Below the pieces are notes generated by a model. That model did no database searches and was not told the origin of the DNA. It worked only from the letters and a program-made list of their open reading frames with translations. A stretch of DNA of 64,000 nt from Escherichia coli (GTDB lineage Bacteria > Pseudomonadota > Gammaproteobacteria > Enterobacterales > Enterobacteriaceae), in NCBI GenBank assembly GCA_002099625.1, contig GCA_002099625.1_4857.1. One strand, written 5' to 3'. Shown here in pieces: positions 4,972 to 17,779 of the stretch; position 1 is the first letter of the stretch, and each line of letters opens with the position of its first letter. Both the position numbers and the translations under genes were made by a program.

Positions 4972-5021
4972 TAGCCCTATCGATTCTGTTACGAACTTCT
5001 GCTAACGATAACGTTTCCCAC

Positions 5022-5342
5022 TTAAAATCCATTGCGACCTCCCTGTGCGATGTATAACGCACATTTCGCATTGAGTGCTTCGATATTAGCGATAAGTATC
5101 ATCACGCCGCCGAGTGTTCGTGGTACGCGAACTGCTTCGTACTCGCGACTTTGTGTACGGACACAATATTCATCGCCCAGGAACGCGATTTCGTAATACT
5201 CAGCACGTAACGGCACAAATGACTGTAGCAACATATCTGCGGTTTGATAGTCGTCAGTCAGTTTTCCGCCCTCGAGTAAATATTTCTGAATCTCGTGAAT
5301 GGTCAATCCCTGTAATGAAATAGACACCAGCTTCTCCTTCAT
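5022..5342 (-). CDS. hypothetical protein, start uncertain
   Basis: ORF track 106 aa. Leader motif TAATCGACCAT spans the ATG at 5342; AAGGAG plus 6 nt then GTG at 5327 is an alternative start. Confidence 0.45.
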   Translation of the reverse strand: MKEKLVSISLQGLTIHEIQKYLLEGGKLTDDYQTADMLLQSFVPLRAEYYEIAFLGDEYCVRTQSREYEAVRVPRTLGGVMILIANIEALNAKCALYIAQGGRNGF

Positions 5343-5679
5343 GGTCGATTAATAACAGTTCAGGTGGCACGTCATAGTCGATGGGTGCGGACTCCTCCAT
5401 CACGCTATACAATCGCTGATAGAACTCTCTGGAGGTTTCCAGGTGCCCTCTTGACACGTGTCTGACATGCGGTGTATTAGGATGATAAAACTCGCCGTAG
5501 GTTATCGCTAACTCGACAAACCATAGACATAGTTCTCTTGGCCCGTACCGGTTATAAAACTTTATCACCCCAACATCAAACATCTTGTTGTAATGCGGTA
5601 AATCACGATAACGAAGTTTTAGTGTACCTACACCGATGCGTTGAAGCTCGATAGAGATAGCTACGTCTATGGTTACCAT
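5254..5679 (-). CDS. hypothetical protein
   Basis: 141-aa ORF; 3' end overlaps next gene by 74-89 nt in another frame. Confidence 0.5.
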   Translation of the reverse strand: MVTIDVAISIELQRIGVGTLKLRYRDLPHYNKMFDVGVIKFYNRYGPRELCLWFVELAITYGEFYHPNTPHVRHVSRGHLETSREFYQRLYSVMEESAPIDYDVPPELLLIDHEGEAGVYFITGIDHSRDSEIFTRGRKTD

Positions 5680-5702
5680 TCACAATCACCCTTATCCGCA
5701 GA

Positions 5703-6086
5703 TCATTTAAATCCGCTGTATTCGTCAATGGTGCCGTCTTTGATGTACACGCCCGGCGTCAGTGCGACTTTACGCGGATCTTTATCAGCACGCTCGCCGT
5801 TACACTGGACATTCCATTCGTTGGTTAAACGTTCCATTTCACGACTTGCATACAGCCGCACATTCGTAACTAACTCGCTGGCTTCGCCCAGGTGCGACGC
5901 ATGAAGCACGCTGTTTTCCAGCCCGTAAAGTTTAGCGAGTAGAATCTTGTTAAGTTCTAACGCTGCTTTTGCAACGAGCGCATACCCTTGACGTTGCCCT
6001 TCTGTGCCTGCATTCAGTAACGTCAGCTGATGGTTTTTCATGTGTTCGATTGCCAGTGCTAAGTCGGTGTTCGTTGGCATTTCCAT
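5703..6086 (-). CDS. hypothetical protein
   Basis: 127-aa ORF. Confidence 0.5.
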   Translation of the reverse strand: MEMPTNTDLALAIEHMKNHQLTLLNAGTEGQRQGYALVAKAALELNKILLAKLYGLENSVLHASHLGEASELVTNVRLYASREMERLTNEWNVQCNGERADKDPRKVALTPGVYIKDGTIDEYSGFK

Positions 6087-10771: not shown

Positions 10772-11245
10772 CTAGTATCCTGTTCCGCAAATGGCCCCTT
10801 TCCAGGTTGTACCGCCATCCGTAGATGACAAAGACAACACATCCTCGGCGTCCAGCTTGTACGATAACGGAGGTTCTGCACCGTTAGGCCATTTAACCGA
10901 AGTCGGCCAGGTGATTTTGTTTGCACCGGTACCCTGACGTAGCGTCAGTAATAATTCATATCGCGTACCCGGAACCGGGTCGGTAATAGGTGTGATAGAA
11001 AGCGCAGTGGTGGGGTCACCTAAACGGATGATGAAGTCGTCCGCAACATTGGGATCTATTTCAACGATACCGTCAGCACCGGATAAGTTTTGGATAGGGT
11101 TTGCGTCTGCCCCACCACCGCCGATTTCACTGAGGGGAAGTTTGTACTCCTTTTCATCAACGCTGATAAGCGCTACTGCGCTCGACTTATCGCCGTTGTA
11201 AGAATCGAGTTCATGCAAACGTTTCTTTTTGACTACAGTTGCCAT
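10772..11245 (-). CDS. hypothetical protein, possible small adhesin or Ig-like structural protein
   Basis: 157-aa ORF, G/T/P-rich; start overlaps stop of upstream gene. Confidence 0.5.
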   Translation of the reverse strand: MATVVKKKRLHELDSYNGDKSSAVALISVDEKEYKLPLSEIGGGGADANPIQNLSGADGIVEIDPNVADDFIIRLGDPTTALSITPITDPVPGTRYELLLTLRQGTGANKITWPTSVKWPNGAEPPLSYKLDAEDVLSLSSTDGGTTWKGAICGTGY

Positions 11246-13194
11246 TATGCATCGTCTCCGTAGGTTAACACTGCATCATCACCGATGCATAAAACAGTTT
11301 CTTCATCCAGACTTGCCACAGCTTCTTTTTCATTAAACGCCGTGAATGTAAAGGTAGCCGTCCATGCCGGCGAATCGTCACTCATCGGTGCAATCAACGG
11401 CTCGTTTGTTGGTGTAATAACCCCTGTCGAGATGTCTTCACGTGACAAGTTTAAACCGCACAACTGGTTTACAACTGTCGCTAAATCAGCATAGGTGTCG
11501 CCGGGAGCTACAGTAACTAGTATCGGTCCTTGCGGGTCGATAATTTTATTAGCGACTAGACGGTCGTAATAGACGGTAACCTTCTTGCCGTTAGGTTTAC
11601 GTGCTTTTGCAATGTACGCTTGCGTGGTACGGGCACTTTCAACACCTAAGTCGATAGGCCCCACTCCGCTTATTACAATCTCGTCAGGCGATAATGACAA
11701 TCCGTTATCGTGATTAATTAACGCCACAACGAGGCCCTTGGAGTCTAATCTAAGGTCAGGTGTAAAACGATTAGGGGGACTGTATTTTGCATTCAGTGCA
11801 GGTTTATCAACTAACCAAAAGCCGCTTGGTACGCAGGCCAAAATCACCCAGGCGGTATTTGTTGTCGACGGCCAATTAGGTAAAGTGTCGTAAGTTGGGT
11901 CATCGCACGAATCGCGATAACCGTGTTCACCCAGGAGAACATCGATATTATTAATTAGTTCAATTGCCCTAGTATCGTTCCCTAATTGTCTTTCAAATAA
12001 GGCAACACCGGCAGTTCCTTCAACCCAAACGCCGTCGACCGCAGTCGGATAACCCAATTCAACCTTATAAGGTGTGTAACCGCTGCATTCGGACGTTACT
12101 GCTCGAAACTTTTCCATGTAGCTGTGACACTGCGAAGCCAGCTCCGGTTTGAACTTAGCGATAAACAATCCACCCCAGCTTGACTGGTCTAAAGCGGCAG
12201 CGTCGTCATCGACATCGGCTCTAACGCCTTGACGCAATCGACCCTCTTCTTCTATCCAAAACTTGTCTAAAATTAGATTGCCTAACTCTATCGCCTTCGC
12301 GGCGTAGCTATCAAATCCAACCCTTCCCAATATCTCGAATAAAAACCACAAATCAACACAATGTTCCAAGGCCGAGAACGGTGCTACATAATTTTCATCG
12401 AACGTTTGCGTACCATCGGGGTTTGTAATAAAGCGGCCTTTACCCCCGAGATATAAGCCGTATCTCCTATCGTTTACATCGCTAACACGGAATCCTTCAA
12501 CCCAACTGAGCGAAAGAGTGAGCTTACTCCTAACTTGACCAACTAAGGTGCCGTTTGGATATTTCTCTAGGTAAAAAGCAAGGGCGTATAATACCCATGC
12601 CACATTGCCCATCCGATAATAGTTACGTGGAGACTTGGCAGACAAACGATTTACATAAAACTTAATACCACCGTCTGTGTCCACTAAAGCACAAAGCCCT
12701 TTAACATATTTCTCAACGGCTCCGTGATCTATAGCCATTAGTGCTAAAGCTGCCACCGCCTGATCGTACGTGTAACATCGATCTTTCATTACCTTGATAA
12801 CATCAGGTTCGGCGTCGCTGGGCATTAAGTAACTGCGTATACATAGAGGAAATTCCAGGGTTGTAATCCACTCTCCAGTTGATATATTGATTAGTCTAAA
12901 CTGTTTAGCACCGGCCCACGTACGTTTAAAAGAAAACGCCCCTGAGGCATCAAGAGGGGCTTCACCTAGCAAATACTCCCCGGTGGTGTAAGCATACATT
13001 ACCACTTTGTGGTTTGTGGGGTTGGTAACGTTGCTTTTTCCCGTCACGACCCCGATATAATCGTAGTCTACATTCTGATCTACGGACAGACTTACACTCG
13101 GGTCGTAGACCTCAGGAAGATCCAAGGTTAGCATTGTCTCTGTAGTATATTCGACCAACTCAGCAAAGTTGCGGATTATAGGTTTCGTCGTCAC
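11245..13194 (-). CDS. glycosidase-like (alpha/alpha)6 toroid protein candidate
   Basis: Start reassigned to GTG at 13194 (SD GGAGG 5 nt upstream); the ORF track start at 13290 would read through the terminator at 13223..13250. Contains YDQAVAALAL-like motifs. Confidence 0.55.
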   Translation of the reverse strand: MTTKPIIRNFAELVEYTTETMLTLDLPEVYDPSVSLSVDQNVDYDYIGVVTGKSNVTNPTNHKVVMYAYTTGEYLLGEAPLDASGAFSFKRTWAGAKQFRLINISTGEWITTLEFPLCIRSYLMPSDAEPDVIKVMKDRCYTYDQAVAALALMAIDHGAVEKYVKGLCALVDTDGGIKFYVNRLSAKSPRNYYRMGNVAWVLYALAFYLEKYPNGTLVGQVRSKLTLSLSWVEGFRVSDVNDRRYGLYLGGKGRFITNPDGTQTFDENYVAPFSALEHCVDLWFLFEILGRVGFDSYAAKAIELGNLILDKFWIEEEGRLRQGVRADVDDDAAALDQSSWGGLFIAKFKPELASQCHSYMEKFRAVTSECSGYTPYKVELGYPTAVDGVWVEGTAGVALFERQLGNDTRAIELINNIDVLLGEHGYRDSCDDPTYDTLPNWPSTTNTAWVILACVPSGFWLVDKPALNAKYSPPNRFTPDLRLDSKGLVVALINHDNGLSLSPDEIVISGVGPIDLGVESARTTQAYIAKARKPNGKKVTVYYDRLVANKIIDPQGPILVTVAPGDTYADLATVVNQLCGLNLSREDISTGVITPTNEPLIAPMSDDSPAWTATFTFTAFNEKEAVASLDEETVLCIGDDAVLTYGDDA

Positions 13195-13207
13195 AATTTC
13201 CTCCAGA

Positions 13208-13252
13208 AACAAAAAAAAATAAGCTACCACACATATGATCGTGTGGTAGCCT
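13208..13252 (-). terminator. intrinsic terminator
   Basis: Stem gctaccacac/gtgtggtagc, T-run on minus strand; after stop of 13265..13660. Confidence 0.7.
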
Positions 13253-13264
13253 ACTCGTACGCTG

Positions 13265-13660
13265 TTAGTGCAGTGTAGCACTGTGCACAACAGTTAACCC
13301 GCGACGTTTGATCTCATCCGCGATGGATTGCAACAGCTTATCGTAACCCACCTTTACAAATTCAGGTAAGCCACGGTCAACCATCTCCATCTCGGTGATT
13401 TCTTCACGGAAAACTTGACAACAGCCTTCTAAATAACGTTTAGCTTCTGTCACGTCATCGACATACCGCGCATAACTCAGGGCGATCGCGTAACCTTCTG
13501 CAATAAACGCATACTTCATGAAGACTTCTGGGTCGAGTTCTTCAACTGCCACGTCTAGACGTGAAGCGGTCTGACGTACAGAGTTACGTAATGATTCAGA
13601 AAACAGTGTAGTCGTAACCATATCCTGATTAGGAACGGTTTTAGGCATAATCAATTTCAC
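13265..13660 (-). CDS. hypothetical protein
   Basis: 131-aa ORF. Confidence 0.5.
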   Translation of the reverse strand: MKLIMPKTVPNQDMVTTTLFSESLRNSVRQTASRLDVAVEELDPEVFMKYAFIAEGYAIALSYARYVDDVTEAKRYLEGCCQVFREEITEMEMVDRGLPEFVKVGYDKLLQSIADEIKRRGLTVVHSATLH

Positions 13661-13671
13661 GAGGACTCTCC

Positions 13672-14055
13672 TTACGATAACTCGCCCATGTAAATTACTT
13701 CATAACCGAACCACTCACCGATTTCAATAAGGTAAGAAACTAGCAAGTGGCGATGACAGAATTTCCCCGGTGGGCAATAGCACATTAGTACGACCTCGCC
13801 CCGGCGGAGAATCTCTATCAGCTTATCAGTGTCTTCATCAAACAACCGACTAAGTTTCTGCAGGTAGCGTTTGGTATACGCAGCTTCTGCGTCGGGGCCT
13901 TTGTCAGACTTCTTGTAGTCCATCAGAAAGTCCCAGTCGGGTGCCAAATATTTCAGCCCCGACTTAACCGTTATATCCAGCTTTGGCAAATTCCGTTTTT
14001 CAGCTATCCGCCACTTCGCCAGTTGGAGCGTCCACAGCTTTACTTGCTTTGGCAT
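13672..14055 (-). CDS. DUF488-like protein
   Basis: Motif VVLMCYCPPGKFCHRHLL (C..C....CHR) and LAPDW region resemble the DUF488/YeaO family; start taken at ATG 14055 (MPKQ); overlaps 3' end of upstream gene. Confidence 0.45.
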   Translation of the reverse strand: MPKQVKLWTLQLAKWRIAEKRNLPKLDITVKSGLKYLAPDWDFLMDYKKSDKGPDAEAAYTKRYLQKLSRLFDEDTDKLIEILRRGEVVLMCYCPPGKFCHRHLLVSYLIEIGEWFGYEVIYMGELS

Positions 14056-15007
14056 TATTCGCTCTCTCTTTTTCTTTCTCCTGAAGCGCTTTAAAATGCG
14101 GTGCATATTCGCACCACTCTTCTGCTGTAAATGACGTGATAAACAGTCTTTCGGTATCTTCAGTTACCGTAAAGGTTGTGTGATTTCTTTTCGGGTCCTT
14201 AAAGTTAGCAAAAGTCGGTACGTCCAAACCCATAGCAGAAATAGCACCACCAAGAGCAGAGCACCATACCCGTCTGTAAGCATCGTTGATTTTAATCTCC
14301 CATCCCACAGACGGTGTAATACCAAGACTACGATAATTCTGCGACTTTGCCGACGGATGGGCATAAACGATGAGCATGTTATTCTCACGGTCTATCGCGA
14401 ATTCGTAGTTGTTGTAGTTACTGACCTGCACCAATCTACGAATGTCTTCCGGCAACTCCTGCCACATTTCCAGTTTCTCTTTATCCCACGCAGGTGTTAG
14501 AAGCGGTGGAACGCGGCCGGCATGATCTTGGAAATACATCAGTTCGCTATAAAGGTTCTTTAAGCGAGCGTACTCGTCTAATGTCCAATCTCCCAGCTCT
14601 AGACTATTCTCCAACGCATCTAACTTATTCCAGCCAACAACTGCATAGGCGTGGTGCTGTTTGCGTGTAATGTCGCACATCAGTTTAGCGAGGCCGTTAA
14701 CAACATTGCCTTGCTGAACCAGAGGCGACCAGCCGTTAGCGTAGCCGGCGCTAACGACAGGCGGAAAGTTCTCTTCCCCGAGCACCGCCCATGTAACACG
14801 ATCGGTTTGTGCGTGGTATCTGTCCATTAACCGTTCAACAATGGCCACACTACAAAGAATTTCCATGAAGTTCGCGTTACCTCCATTCCACATGGAGAAA
14901 TATGCAGGACGGACATGTCGTGCTTCATTGGCCGGTGCTTTGCACAACAGCTGATACATTATCCAGGTGGAATCCAACCCTGCTGAAAACGAAACGAGCT
15001 TCGTCAT
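14000..15007 (-). CDS. PP-loop ATP pyrophosphatase superfamily protein
   Basis: N-terminal SFSAGLDST matches the PP-loop SGGxDS motif (QueC, PAPS reductase, asparagine synthase class); 335 aa. Confidence 0.5.
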   Translation of the reverse strand: MTKLVSFSAGLDSTWIMYQLLCKAPANEARHVRPAYFSMWNGGNANFMEILCSVAIVERLMDRYHAQTDRVTWAVLGEENFPPVVSAGYANGWSPLVQQGNVVNGLAKLMCDITRKQHHAYAVVGWNKLDALENSLELGDWTLDEYARLKNLYSELMYFQDHAGRVPPLLTPAWDKEKLEMWQELPEDIRRLVQVSNYNNYEFAIDRENNMLIVYAHPSAKSQNYRSLGITPSVGWEIKINDAYRRVWCSALGGAISAMGLDVPTFANFKDPKRNHTTFTVTEDTERLFITSFTAEEWCEYAPHFKALQEKEKERANNAKASKAVDAPTGEVADS

Positions 15008-15015
15008 CCTTTACC

Positions 15016-15348
15016 TCACTTTTGTTTCTGTTTTTCTTCACGCATCAACTTAGCGTTCAGGTCGACCATGTAACCCGGTTTTTCCATCACCTGCACTTCT
15101 TCCCAGTTGCTTCCCACCGCCATTTTGAGGGTTCCTTGACGTACCGCGATTTCTTTTGCAGTGTCACGGCAGACCTCTAACGCTTCGTCCAAATCGTTAA
15201 AAGTTGTCTTCTGTGGTCCGTTAAAGGTTTTAGCGCATTCCAGGAATACACGTTCGTAAACATCCTGGTCGAGTAAGAGTGGTTTGTCCGCAGCGTGGGC
15301 AACCATAGGCGCAACGAGTGCGCCTAACAGAACTAAAACTTTCTTCAT
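15016..15348 (-). CDS. secreted small protein with Sec signal peptide
   Basis: Start at ATG 15348 (MKKVLVLLGALVAPMVAHA-AD, AXA cleavage site); ATGA overlap with upstream stop. Confidence 0.5.
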   Translation of the reverse strand: MKKVLVLLGALVAPMVAHAADKPLLLDQDVYERVFLECAKTFNGPQKTTFNDLDEALEVCRDTAKEIAVRQGTLKMAVGSNWEEVQVMEKPGYMVDLNAKLMREEKQKQK

Positions 15349-15830
15349 TGTTTCACCGTACGTAGAAATTGATAACGTGGGGTTTCTTCTGCCACAACAT
15401 CGAAAGATGGGATGCAAACAATCTTCCCATATCCATCGAGTTCTATACGTGGAGAAATCGTGATGGTGCCTGCACGCATCACTTCAATCGCTAACGCTTT
15501 GAGTGGGCCGTATGGTGTGAATTCACCGCGGAGTTGAAAGTAACCATCGACAACGCCATAGCAGACATTCGATACATAACCGCAAACGCGTACGAGTTCA
15601 ATACAACGTATCCGATCAATGGCGGCCTTTACTTCCCCGAACGATTGACACGGTTTAATCACAGGCGCGTCGAATTCACAGAAAACGTGTCCGCGACGTA
15701 ATGCTAACGATATCGTTTCGTCGGGACGGGCCGAGTCTTTAAATTCGTCGCACGGTATAGACAGTAGCAGTCCACTCGCGGATGCCACGGTTTGTGCGGG
15801 TATTTCCTTAACCTCGGTTTGTAGTTTCAT
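15345..15830 (-). CDS. hypothetical protein
   Basis: 161-aa ORF. Confidence 0.5.
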   Translation of the reverse strand: MKLQTEVKEIPAQTVASASGLLLSIPCDEFKDSARPDETISLALRRGHVFCEFDAPVIKPCQSFGEVKAAIDRIRCIELVRVCGYVSNVCYGVVDGYFQLRGEFTPYGPLKALAIEVMRAGTITISPRIELDGYGKIVCIPSFDVVAEETPRYQFLRTVKQ

Positions 15831-15920
15831 TTATTCACTCGATAATTAATGGGGTTAAAATCAAATCCATGTAACCTAGGGTCAATAGCGCCACTATCTC
15901 AATCGGCGTTAAATTCTCCA

Positions 15921-16130
15921 TTAATTTTCCTCTTTGAGTATCATGGCAACCGCTTTACGACACGCATCCACCGCATCAGGATAAGTGTCACTGTTCGGGT
16001 CCACACGGTCAATGCACATCCTAAACGTGCTGGTTGCGGTCTCTCGACGTTCCGCAGTACGAGTGCTGGTACTGATTGCGATATAAATACAAAACAGCAC
16101 CGCCGCGGCGATAGGCCAACGTAAGTTCAT
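15921..16130 (-). CDS. small membrane protein
   Basis: 69-aa ORF with N-terminal hydrophobic segment WPIAAAVLFCIYIAIS; coupled to upstream stop. Confidence 0.45.
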   Translation of the reverse strand: MNLRWPIAAAVLFCIYIAISTSTRTAERRETATSTFRMCIDRVDPNSDTYPDAVDACRKAVAMILKEEN

Positions 16131-16828: not shown

Positions 16829-17298
16829 TACTTAAAAACCTTTTTACAGACAGTGTGGAATACTTTACGAATTTCGCGAAGAGTTTGTTCGGTATGCAGA
16901 TGCCGATACGTTATTTTCCATGCGTTATACGTGTTCTTCAGGGTGATCTCGCTGAGGTCGTAGACGAAATCCTCATCAGGGTACAAGAGTCTCGCCATGC
17001 ACAAATCCCACAGTGGCGGAATATCCGCTTTCATTAACTCAGCGACAAGCTCATGTGCTTTGTGTTCAAAGCCGATGCCAAGAACGAACACCACATGAAA
17101 TTCCCCCGGTGTGTTCTTTTTAGAATATGGTCCGTGTCCATGACACGACCACATTGTCGTGGCACCAGGATAACTACAAATGACCTCACACGCATCCCGT
17201 ACGCCTTTCTCAACCCAACCGTTTACGAGCGCCTTAGACGTTCGTAGTTTAAACCGACCCAGAACATCCAGGTCCACGCCACCGTATAAAACTGGCAT
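16828..17298 (-). CDS. hypothetical protein
   Basis: 156-aa ORF. Confidence 0.5.
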   Translation of the reverse strand: MPVLYGGVDLDVLGRFKLRTSKALVNGWVEKGVRDACEVICSYPGATTMWSCHGHGPYSKKNTPGEFHVVFVLGIGFEHKAHELVAELMKADIPPLWDLCMARLLYPDEDFVYDLSEITLKNTYNAWKITYRHLHTEQTLREIRKVFHTVCKKVFK

Positions 17299-17326
17299 CT
17301 TTAATTCTCCTTAAGGGTGTCTTCAT

Positions 17327-17779
17327 TTAATGGTTATGTTCTGTAAAAATTGCGAGTGCGAGCCAGTGCTCCATCACTCTTTCCATCACATCCGGGTCAG
17401 GTCGATAGTTGAGTCTAAACGTCCAGCTTGGATAACAGAGGTTCGCGTTGCCTTCTTGACGCAGCCAAGTAAAGTTTAACTGAAAACGTTTCCCGTATTC
17501 GTGCGGCTGCCATCCTTCTAATAAATGATTAATGTCTTTAAGACCCGCCTCGGTTGCCACAAATGTTAAGCTGTGGTGTCTACGTGTACGAAGCTTGTCT
17601 CCGTCTTTGCGAACTTCTCCCGTGAATGCCCAAACGGTTGCGATATTCGGCCATTCGCTAAATGCCCTAATGATTGCACGCGTTTTAACATCGACTGGTT
17701 TTTCAGCATCCAGCGCCCGGATTGTGCGCTGCTTGTACGCGGCCAATTCCGCATCATTGACGACTGAACATTGAAACAT
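17327..17779 (-). CDS. hypothetical protein
   Basis: 150-aa ORF. Confidence 0.5.
   Translation of the reverse strand: MFQCSVVNDAELAAYKQRTIRALDAEKPVDVKTRAIIRAFSEWPNIATVWAFTGEVRKDGDKLRTRRHHSLTFVATEAGLKDINHLLEGWQPHEYGKRFQLNFTWLRQEGNANLCYPSWTFRLNYRPDPDVMERVMEHWLALAIFTEHNH

Follow-up and report, generated by a model that had tools for sequence, protein, structure and literature searches.

The overlap of a gene for a PP-loop ATPase with a gene for a DUF488 protein raises the question of whether the two products form one functional system. Both genes lie in a stretch of 64,000 nucleotides (nt; the whole of it is hereafter the window) from a contig filed under Escherichia coli (GCA_002099625.1_4857.1, assembly GCA_002099625.1). 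Positions 13201..16000 are 99.4% identical to the Salmonella jumbo phage SPN3US, and by its sequence the window is an SPN3US-like Seoulvirus, i.e., a giant phage of Salmonella that belongs to the phiKZ-like, nucleus-forming phages. The original prediction, made from the DNA alone, described the two open reading frames (ORFs) and suggested that they might be a nucleotide or DNA modification module. The ORFs, at 13672..14055 and 14000..15007, are both present on the minus strand, overlap by 56 nt, and correspond to the same coding sequences (CDS), with the identical overlap, in RefSeq SPN3US, where ACQ60_gp146 is already labelled 'DUF488 family protein'. We find it reasonably probable that the pair consists of two separate accessory enzymes, physically overlapping and presumably co-expressed from one minus-strand transcription unit (every gene of the region around 13201..16000 is on this strand), and that they would not form an obligate two-part system.

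The distribution of the two families speaks against the proposed module. DUF488-N3a has tblastn matches in ~290 of 50,697 phage records, versus 68 records for the ATPase family, and outside one group of genera the genes are unlinked or occur singly. They are adjacent and overlapping in Seoulvirus (SPN3US, SaP7, SPAsTU, pEa_SNUABM_29), Machinavirus (Caitlin, Huxley, pEa_SNUABM_9, pSal-SNUABM-04), and Erskinevirus (Asesino, phiEaH2), the only genera in which this overlap was seen. In the Wellingtonvirus Kwan, the DUF488 gene is 2.5 kb from the ATPase gene, beyond a gene for an HslU-like ATPase, and in pEa_SNUABM_37 the two are 116 kb apart. The Aeromonas phage AhC3_1 has the ATPase and no detected DUF488, which three Aeromonas records do have. 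No DUF488 gene was found within 4 kb of the distant ATPase homologues (AhC3_1, pEa_SNUABM_37, and four IMG/VR jumbo contigs), whose neighbours vary: an SLT transglycosylase, a DNA ligase and RNase H (AhC3_1), or a SNF2 helicase, a Macro-domain protein, and DNA polymerase A (P0083). Conversely, phiKZ and three metagenomic chimallivirus-like contigs lack an ATPase homologue but carry DUF488, which lies close to structural genes and the S80 head protease. The product of the gene upstream of the phiKZ DUF488 (gp152) was considered as a divergent PP-loop protein and rejected, as it does not match the profile of the ATPase family; it is the recombinase Nlp1, with a sequence that looks RecA-like by inspection. 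Overall, the ATPase and DUF488 genes appear to be inherited independently across phages. Their linkage is lineage-specific, confined to a clade whose members share overall synteny, and as evidence for a common pathway it is weak.

Several points weigh against this separation, or against the enzymatic role that it supposes. Adjacency and overlap have been kept across three genera despite an ATPase identity of only 31-36% between them, perhaps because co-expression was under selection in this clade or because the two proteins share a pathway there; given the shared synteny of Seoulvirus, Machinavirus, and Erskinevirus, the argument from adjacency cuts both ways. The absence of DUF488 from AhC3_1 is an absence of tblastn matches at E <= 1e-3. 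Finally, the Seoulvirus PP-loop reads SAGLDS, not SGGxDS, so that activity is not guaranteed.

The most distant ATPase relative, P0083 (365 amino acids [aa]), has a faint QueC Pfam match and comes from an 88-kb metagenomic phage contig (L031, 3801..8783). It sits between a Macro-domain protein and SNF2 helicase on one side and a family A DNA polymerase on the other, beside RecA and a 5'-3' exonuclease. This is a context of replication and repair, unlike that of the window.

We characterised the 335-aa protein by profile and structure comparisons. Its N-terminus reads MTKLVSFSAGLDSTW, and its start codon (ATG at 15007) is preceded by a GAGG Shine-Dalgarno sequence 8-11 nt upstream. No Pfam, NCBIfam, or PADLOC model matches it; the sole match is phrog_8825, of unknown function. 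Relatives are few: 17 in an index of 5.8 billion proteins, and, among 1.84 billion representatives searched exhaustively with phmmer, 27 clusters (30 matches with a profile). Where their source is known, it is in every case a large phage genome or contig, and two peptide patterns found no cellular homologue in 185,579 bacterial and archaeal species genomes. The PP-loop (S8-A9-G10-L11-D12-S13) fits the family consensus [ST]-[GAS]-G-[LV]-[DE]-S-[TS], most members having TGGLDS. Eight residues (G10, S13, Q98, G125, D130, P172, K178, and K221) are invariant across 25 members with identity down to 18%.

An AlphaFold model built on 11 sequences (predicted local distance difference test [pLDDT] 81, predicted template modelling score 0.85; pLDDT below 50 in tail residues 326-335) has a Rossmann-like alpha/beta fold that superposes on known PP-loop members. 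Its top Foldseek matches in the PDB are all PP-loop enzymes (LarE, GMP synthase, the nitrile synthetase ArtA, and YcfA). A PDB profile search with the family gave matches limited to the PP-loop strand of TilS, Cap9, ArtA, QueC, and LarE, and weak QueC or ATP_bind_3 matches occur in 7/25 and 5/25 members, respectively. The family profile aligned with E. coli QueC over residues 1-189 (hhalign, probability 89.7%, E 1.8e-6); the QueC sequence used is what we take to be that of E. coli, and its positions of Y35, R99, Y131, K165, and Y189 agree with the published numbering. Fold and profile comparison thus confirm the PP-loop identity proposed from the sequence, with no sign of an unrelated fold, and on these grounds the protein is predicted to be a PP-loop ATP pyrophosphatase whose nearest branch is QueC-like, in a small family that has diverged very far from QueC. 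Its fold, its conserved PP-loop, and two residues equivalent to those of QueC (Asp130 and Lys178) suggest that it would bind ATP, adenylate a carboxyl or carbonyl of its substrate, release pyrophosphate, and pass the activated group to a nucleophile, as amide ligases do. Some database labels predate this assignment: the pSal-SNUABM-04 orthologues are annotated 'QueC/ExsB domain containing' and 'DUF488 domain containing', and one JGI homologue was automatically named QueC. The SPN3US and Asesino literature makes no mention of either gene.

The likeness to QueC does not extend to the substrate site. Canonical QueC is defined by the signature SGGxDS, YxQxHxxE, VPxRN, YPDC, K165, and C(x)8CxxCxxC, and its residues Y35, R99, Y131, and Y189 are essential (PMC13329287). 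The QueC model PF06508 does not match the protein of the window, and its best match among the 25 members (E 0.0023) covers the PP-loop only. In the hhalign alignment, M39, N41, G43, and E49 stand opposite Y35, Q37, H39, and E42 of QueC, so that only the Glu of YxQxHxxE is kept. By inspection, VPxRN is replaced by V97-Q-Q-G-N101, with loss of the essential Arg; hhalign placed it opposite 'GWSPL' with a gap, also without Arg. YPDC is replaced by LGDW. The zinc site is absent: residues 186-250 include no Cys, and none is conserved across the family alignment. What is kept is the surface Lys K165 of the TPL...K.E.W segment, as K178, invariant in the 25 sequences: TPAWDK-K-EMW (171-182) is the equivalent of QueC TPLMWIDKAETW, which carries K165. 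There is also an additional C-terminal region of ~140 residues whose fold is unmatched; this family-specific domain, with no known structural relative, would probably select a substrate different from that of QueC. The replacement of the Y35, R99, and Y131 substrate motifs, and of the zinc cluster, argues that the ATPase is not a preQ0 synthase.

The genomic context differs as well. Unlike QueC, Cap9, and QatC, the ATPase is phage-only and has no queD, queE, folE, Cap10, or QatB partner. Among the ~75 annotated CDS of SPN3US 55.0-111.8 kb, which correspond to most of the window (all but its first ~7 kb) and not to the rest of the genome, there is no folE, queD, queE, dpdA-like, or other 7-deazaguanine gene. 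The fold is similar to that of the Cap9 and QatC deazaguanylation systems, but there is no CD-NTase with Cap10 and no QatA/B/D, the neighbours are unrelated, and PADLOC matches neither the ATPase nor three of its relatives. The substrate-binding domains of ThiI, TilS, TtuA/NcsA, LarE, NAD and NMN synthetases, and GMP synthase are also absent from it; specifically, it lacks a THUMP domain, the TilS C-terminal domains, Fe-S cysteines, and a glutaminase.

The identity of the smaller protein (127 aa) is clearer. It was recognised in the original prediction by its CHR motif, and Pfam places it in DUF488-N3a (PF22751, 'active DUF488-N3 subclade'; 1.3e-11, 45.3 bits against a gathering cutoff of 27, profile positions 26-114 of 118), with a further match to DUF488 (PF04343, 3.1e-6) and one to DUF4326 below threshold. 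It contains MCYCPPGKFCHRHLL, and in the motif CYC-x4-FCHR the residues C92, C94, F99, C100, H101, and R102 are invariant in 19/19 homologues with identity down to 37%, so the motif residues hold up as conserved; neither this motif nor the PP-loop looks like a product of chance. T29, G33, A38, P39, Y60, L104, G124, and E125 are invariant in the same alignment. All 33 homologues retrieved are single-domain proteins, and precomputed PF22751 assignments cover all intact ones, leaving only the garbled SPFM-series proteins and one partial fragment without a Pfam assignment. Carriers include phiKZ (gp151, 39% identity), many jumbo phages of Pseudomonas, Vibrio, Erwinia, Serratia, and Klebsiella, and the 85-kb Aeromonas phage APT65. 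By its Pfam match, its motif, and its identity to gp151, the protein is thus a regular DUF488-N3a member, with nothing distinctive except the overlap with an upstream PP-loop gene, particular to the Seoulvirus/Machinavirus/Erskinevirus clade. The 'truncated DUF488' of SaP7, SEGD1, and SPLA5c is an annotation choice, as the DNA is intact save for a 6-nt in-frame deletion in a GA-rich stretch.

Burroughs and Aravind reportedly placed DUF488-N3a in the rhodanese-phosphatase superfamily in 2023, and they are also reported to predict nucleic-acid ends or derivatives of NAD/ADP-ribose as the substrates of DUF488 enzymes. We know of no experimentally characterised DUF488-N3a member. With its Cys...CHR active site intact, the protein would act on a phosphorylated sugar or nucleotide substrate. 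A study of the sister family DUF4326 is a second source for the superfamily placement and predicted chemistry (PMC9503650). A sequence profile search returned no solved structure, and PADLOC gave weak matches to two candidate-defence models. In a phiKZ transposon screen, gp151 received 360 reads at 2 sites in the trimmed data and 1380 reads at 11 sites in the untrimmed data, and the neighbouring gp149 and gp152 had almost no insertions. This is consistent with gp151 being a dispensable, accessory gene.

The original prediction held the overlap itself to be unusual; it is real and conserved, but its length, although long, is not unique in the genome, where gp170/gp169 of SPN3US have an annotated overlap of 55 nt. 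The mechanically called DUF488 ORF reaches an ATG at 14106, and homologues together with the Shine-Dalgarno sequence GAGAGAG (14062..14068) favour the ATG at 14055. The overlap measures 56 nt in Seoulvirus (the same in SPAsTU, pEa_SNUABM_29, and SaP7) and 176 nt in Erskinevirus. For Machinavirus, counting to the conserved Trp gives a minimum of 65 nt, and the probable length is 107-128 nt if upstream ATG/GTG starts (preceded by GAGGGAG or AAGGTGG) are used. DUF488 is in the +1 frame in every genome where the two genes adjoin. The ATPase tail motif D-x3-GEVA is the other-frame reading of the DUF488 N-terminus W-T-L-Q-L-AKWR (GEVA mirrors AKWR), and this N-terminus is also kept in phiKZ, which has no such overlap. 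Because of this, the conservation of the ATPase tail is best read, at the sequence level, as imposed by the overlapped DUF488 gene. The ATPase frame would have run past the DUF488 start, its disordered tail being overprinted onto the beginning of DUF488, and the purine-rich EKEKER codons of the ATPase would double as the DUF488 ribosome-binding site. An RNA structure masking this site was considered and rejected: the local fold at the Shine-Dalgarno sequence lacks significance (z -0.42), and most of the element is unpaired. Overprinting, possibly with translational coupling, is the simplest explanation of the overlap, with no special mechanism needed.

Long overlaps at either gene recur in other lineages with unrelated partners. 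In Kwan (L014, 4501..5487 / 5423..5923), the ATPase gene is overlapped by 65 nt, in the +1 frame, by an unrelated gene of 166 aa, and on a metagenomic contig (L030, 4472..5044 / 5001..5366), an unrelated 190-aa gene overlaps the DUF488-N3a gene by 44 nt.

These results bear on several alternatives to two separate enzymes. The original idea of a two-step modification module, in which the PP-loop protein adenylates a base or nucleotide and DUF488 processes the phosphate or ribose of the same substrate, with restriction evasion via DNA or tRNA, draws on the conserved adjacency and overlap in the three genera, on the closeness of the ATPase fold to the base-modifying QueC, ThiI, and TilS, on the DNA-metabolism neighbourhoods of some distant homologues (AhC3_1, P0083), and on the substrates that Burroughs and Aravind reportedly predicted for DUF488 enzymes. 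We nevertheless regard it as unlikely, given the independent phyletic patterns, the loss of the QueC substrate motifs, and the lack of any folE, queD, queE, or dpdA-like product in the annotated part of SPN3US described above; nor do we know of modified bases in SPN3US-like phages. By analogy with defence systems, one or both proteins might instead act in counter-defence: the QueC-like ligase would intercept or mimic the 7-deazaguanine-protein conjugation of QatABCD or of the type IV cyclic oligonucleotide-based antiphage signalling system (CBASS; Cap9), or rebuild a NAD-type cofactor, and DUF488 would remove a phosphate or an ADP-ribose-derived signal. The lack of a PADLOC match for the ATPase and of a partner like Cap10, CD-NTase, or QatB, and a Cap9 fold score barely above those of QueC and ThiI, make this doubtful. 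A bolder form, in which the jumbo-phage QueC branch uses its new C-terminal domain to ligate an adenylated carboxylate, nucleobase-like or of a cofactor, to a macromolecule (a protein or the end of a nucleic acid), as Cap9/QatC do, with DUF488 as a phosphoesterase in the SPN3US and Erwinia clade, for counter-defence or self-marking, is a speculation to which we would give still less weight.

The ATPase might also be a catalytically dead PP-loop fold with a binding or structural role. Its gene is among head and tail genes, and SGGxDS is not strictly kept: Seoulvirus has Ala and some relatives have Ser in place of the first Gly, and a few have Glu for Asp; set against this, most members keep TGGLDS, and the invariance of G10, S13, Q98, G125, D130, P172, and K178 at such low identity is typical of a maintained active site, which leaves this reading a slim chance. 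The least credible alternative, and a very improbable one, is a programmed +1 ribosomal frameshift yielding a PP-loop-DUF488 fusion protein. It would fit the constant +1 frame, which is open for 116-275 nt before the ATPase stop, and the lack of an ATG at the conserved DUF488 N-terminus in Machinavirus genomes. But nine aligned overlaps share no slippery or stall motif by eye, Seoulvirus and Erskinevirus have an ATG or GTG with a Shine-Dalgarno sequence at the conserved position, Machinavirus has an upstream GTG or ATG with AAGGTGG or GAGGGAG, the RNA structure is not significant, and the 33 DUF488 homologues all stand alone.

The domain identities of both proteins are not new, as GenBank notes had given them before, and a 2026 survey of the QueC family mentions neither jumbo phages nor DUF488. 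In the literature searched and the family libraries, we found no earlier description of a QueC-superfamily branch that is restricted to phages, has a remodelled substrate site, and carries a new C-terminal domain, nor of the evidence against a DUF488 partnership or the overprinting account of the overlap. QueC-type enzymes were recently shown to go beyond queuosine precursors and, in bacterial defence, to attach deazaguanine bases to proteins. The phage-only branch keeps the ATP site, but its substrate site is altered and its C-terminal domain has no match, which makes it a candidate for a novel adenylation chemistry used by the virus in this conflict. The practical value is mostly negative: the DUF488 neighbour should not be assumed to be the partner of the ATPase, and the two genes are therefore best studied separately. 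The overlap is a clean example of protein tail conservation imposed by an overlapped gene. The features of the region are collected in Table 1.

Table 1. Features of the two-gene region and their positions in the window.
Feature	Position	Strand	Remarks
ATPase ORF, 335 aa	14000..15007	minus	SPN3US_0119 / ACQ60_gp147; 'hypothetical' in the SPN3US annotation
PP-loop SFSAGLDST (residues 6-14)	14966..14992	minus	TLTGGLDST in relatives; G10 and S13 invariant in alignments
N-terminal adenylation domain (PP-loop, Rossmann-like), ~residues 1-195	14423..15007	minus	QQ (98-99), GW-K-D (125-130), TPAWDK-K-EMW (171-182)
C-terminal beta-rich domain, ~residues 196-300	14108..14422	minus	Family-specific, in place of the QueC zinc-binding segment; K221, Y225, G229, I230 conserved
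C-terminal helix and disordered tail of the ATPase, ~residues 301-335 (EKEKERANNAKASKAVDAPTGEVADS)	14000..14107	minus	Overprinting: the DUF488 start shares its DNA with the final 18 codons and the stop
Shine-Dalgarno-like GAGAGAG	14062..14068	minus	6 nt upstream of the DUF488 ATG; within the ATPase 'EKEKER' codons
Out-of-frame overlap, 56 nt	14000..14055	minus	DUF488 frame +1 relative to the ATPase frame
DUF488-N3a ORF, 127 aa	13672..14055	minus	SPN3US_0120 / ACQ60_gp146; phiKZ gp151 homologue
Predicted active-site motif C92-Y-C94-PPGK-F99-C100-H101-R102	13750..13782	minus	Invariant columns in the 19-homologue alignment
gp121-like gene, 131 aa, function unknown	13265..13660	minus	Downstream of DUF488; last gene of the apparent transcription unit
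Terminator-like hairpin	13217..13256	minus	17-bp stem, then T-run; directly after the gp121-like gene, closes the unit

The gp121-like gene was considered as a conserved partner of DUF488 and rejected, since the adjacency is limited to Seoulvirus and Erskinevirus. Immediately upstream of the ATPase gene, a 111-aa gene (SPN3US_0118; 15019..15351, minus strand) has a signal-peptide-like start, MKKVLVLLGALVAPMVAHA, no Pfam match, and a match to phrog_10627, of unknown function; SaP7 lacks this gene, and coverage of the region is reduced to the same 82% in SEGD1 and SPLA5c. It is followed upstream by a 161-aa protein (15348..15830, minus strand) labelled 'head maturation protease' by RefSeq and PHROGs (phrog_7478, 1.7e-47). 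Its Pfam Peptidase_S80 match is sub-threshold (E 0.011) and it is much shorter than the 229-position profile; possibly it is a paralogue of the real prohead protease that is truncated or has no catalytic activity. Two suspected pairs of paralogues, gp118 with a 69-aa ORF and two proteins of ~150 aa at 16831-17779, were rejected (BLASTP E above 1).

Several Salmonella phage SPFM records (GenBank LR535901-LR535917) match the region as many short pieces with 50-80% protein identity, and both proteins are garbled in them. They look like error-rich assemblies, not real variants, and were left out of the comparison as such.

On the other side of the terminator-like hairpin, a 681-aa ORF (11245..13290, minus strand) matches the 177-aa SPN3US 'virion structural protein' SPN3US_0122 only in its C-terminal part (DUF7941, Pfam residues 513-661), and each of the 37 Seoulvirus records covers just 28% of its 2046 nt. 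The hairpin, a strong one, falls inside the 5' end of the ORF as mechanically called, and the true start is probably further downstream. The ~480 extra aa have 57% identity to a 'tail protein' of the Stx2k prophage phiSTEC1575, 53% to the E. coli jumbo phage ph0011, and ~30% to minor tail proteins of Microbacterium phages. By these similarities, this part looks like a tail or receptor-binding-type domain acquired by the phage of the window, with possible relevance to its host range.

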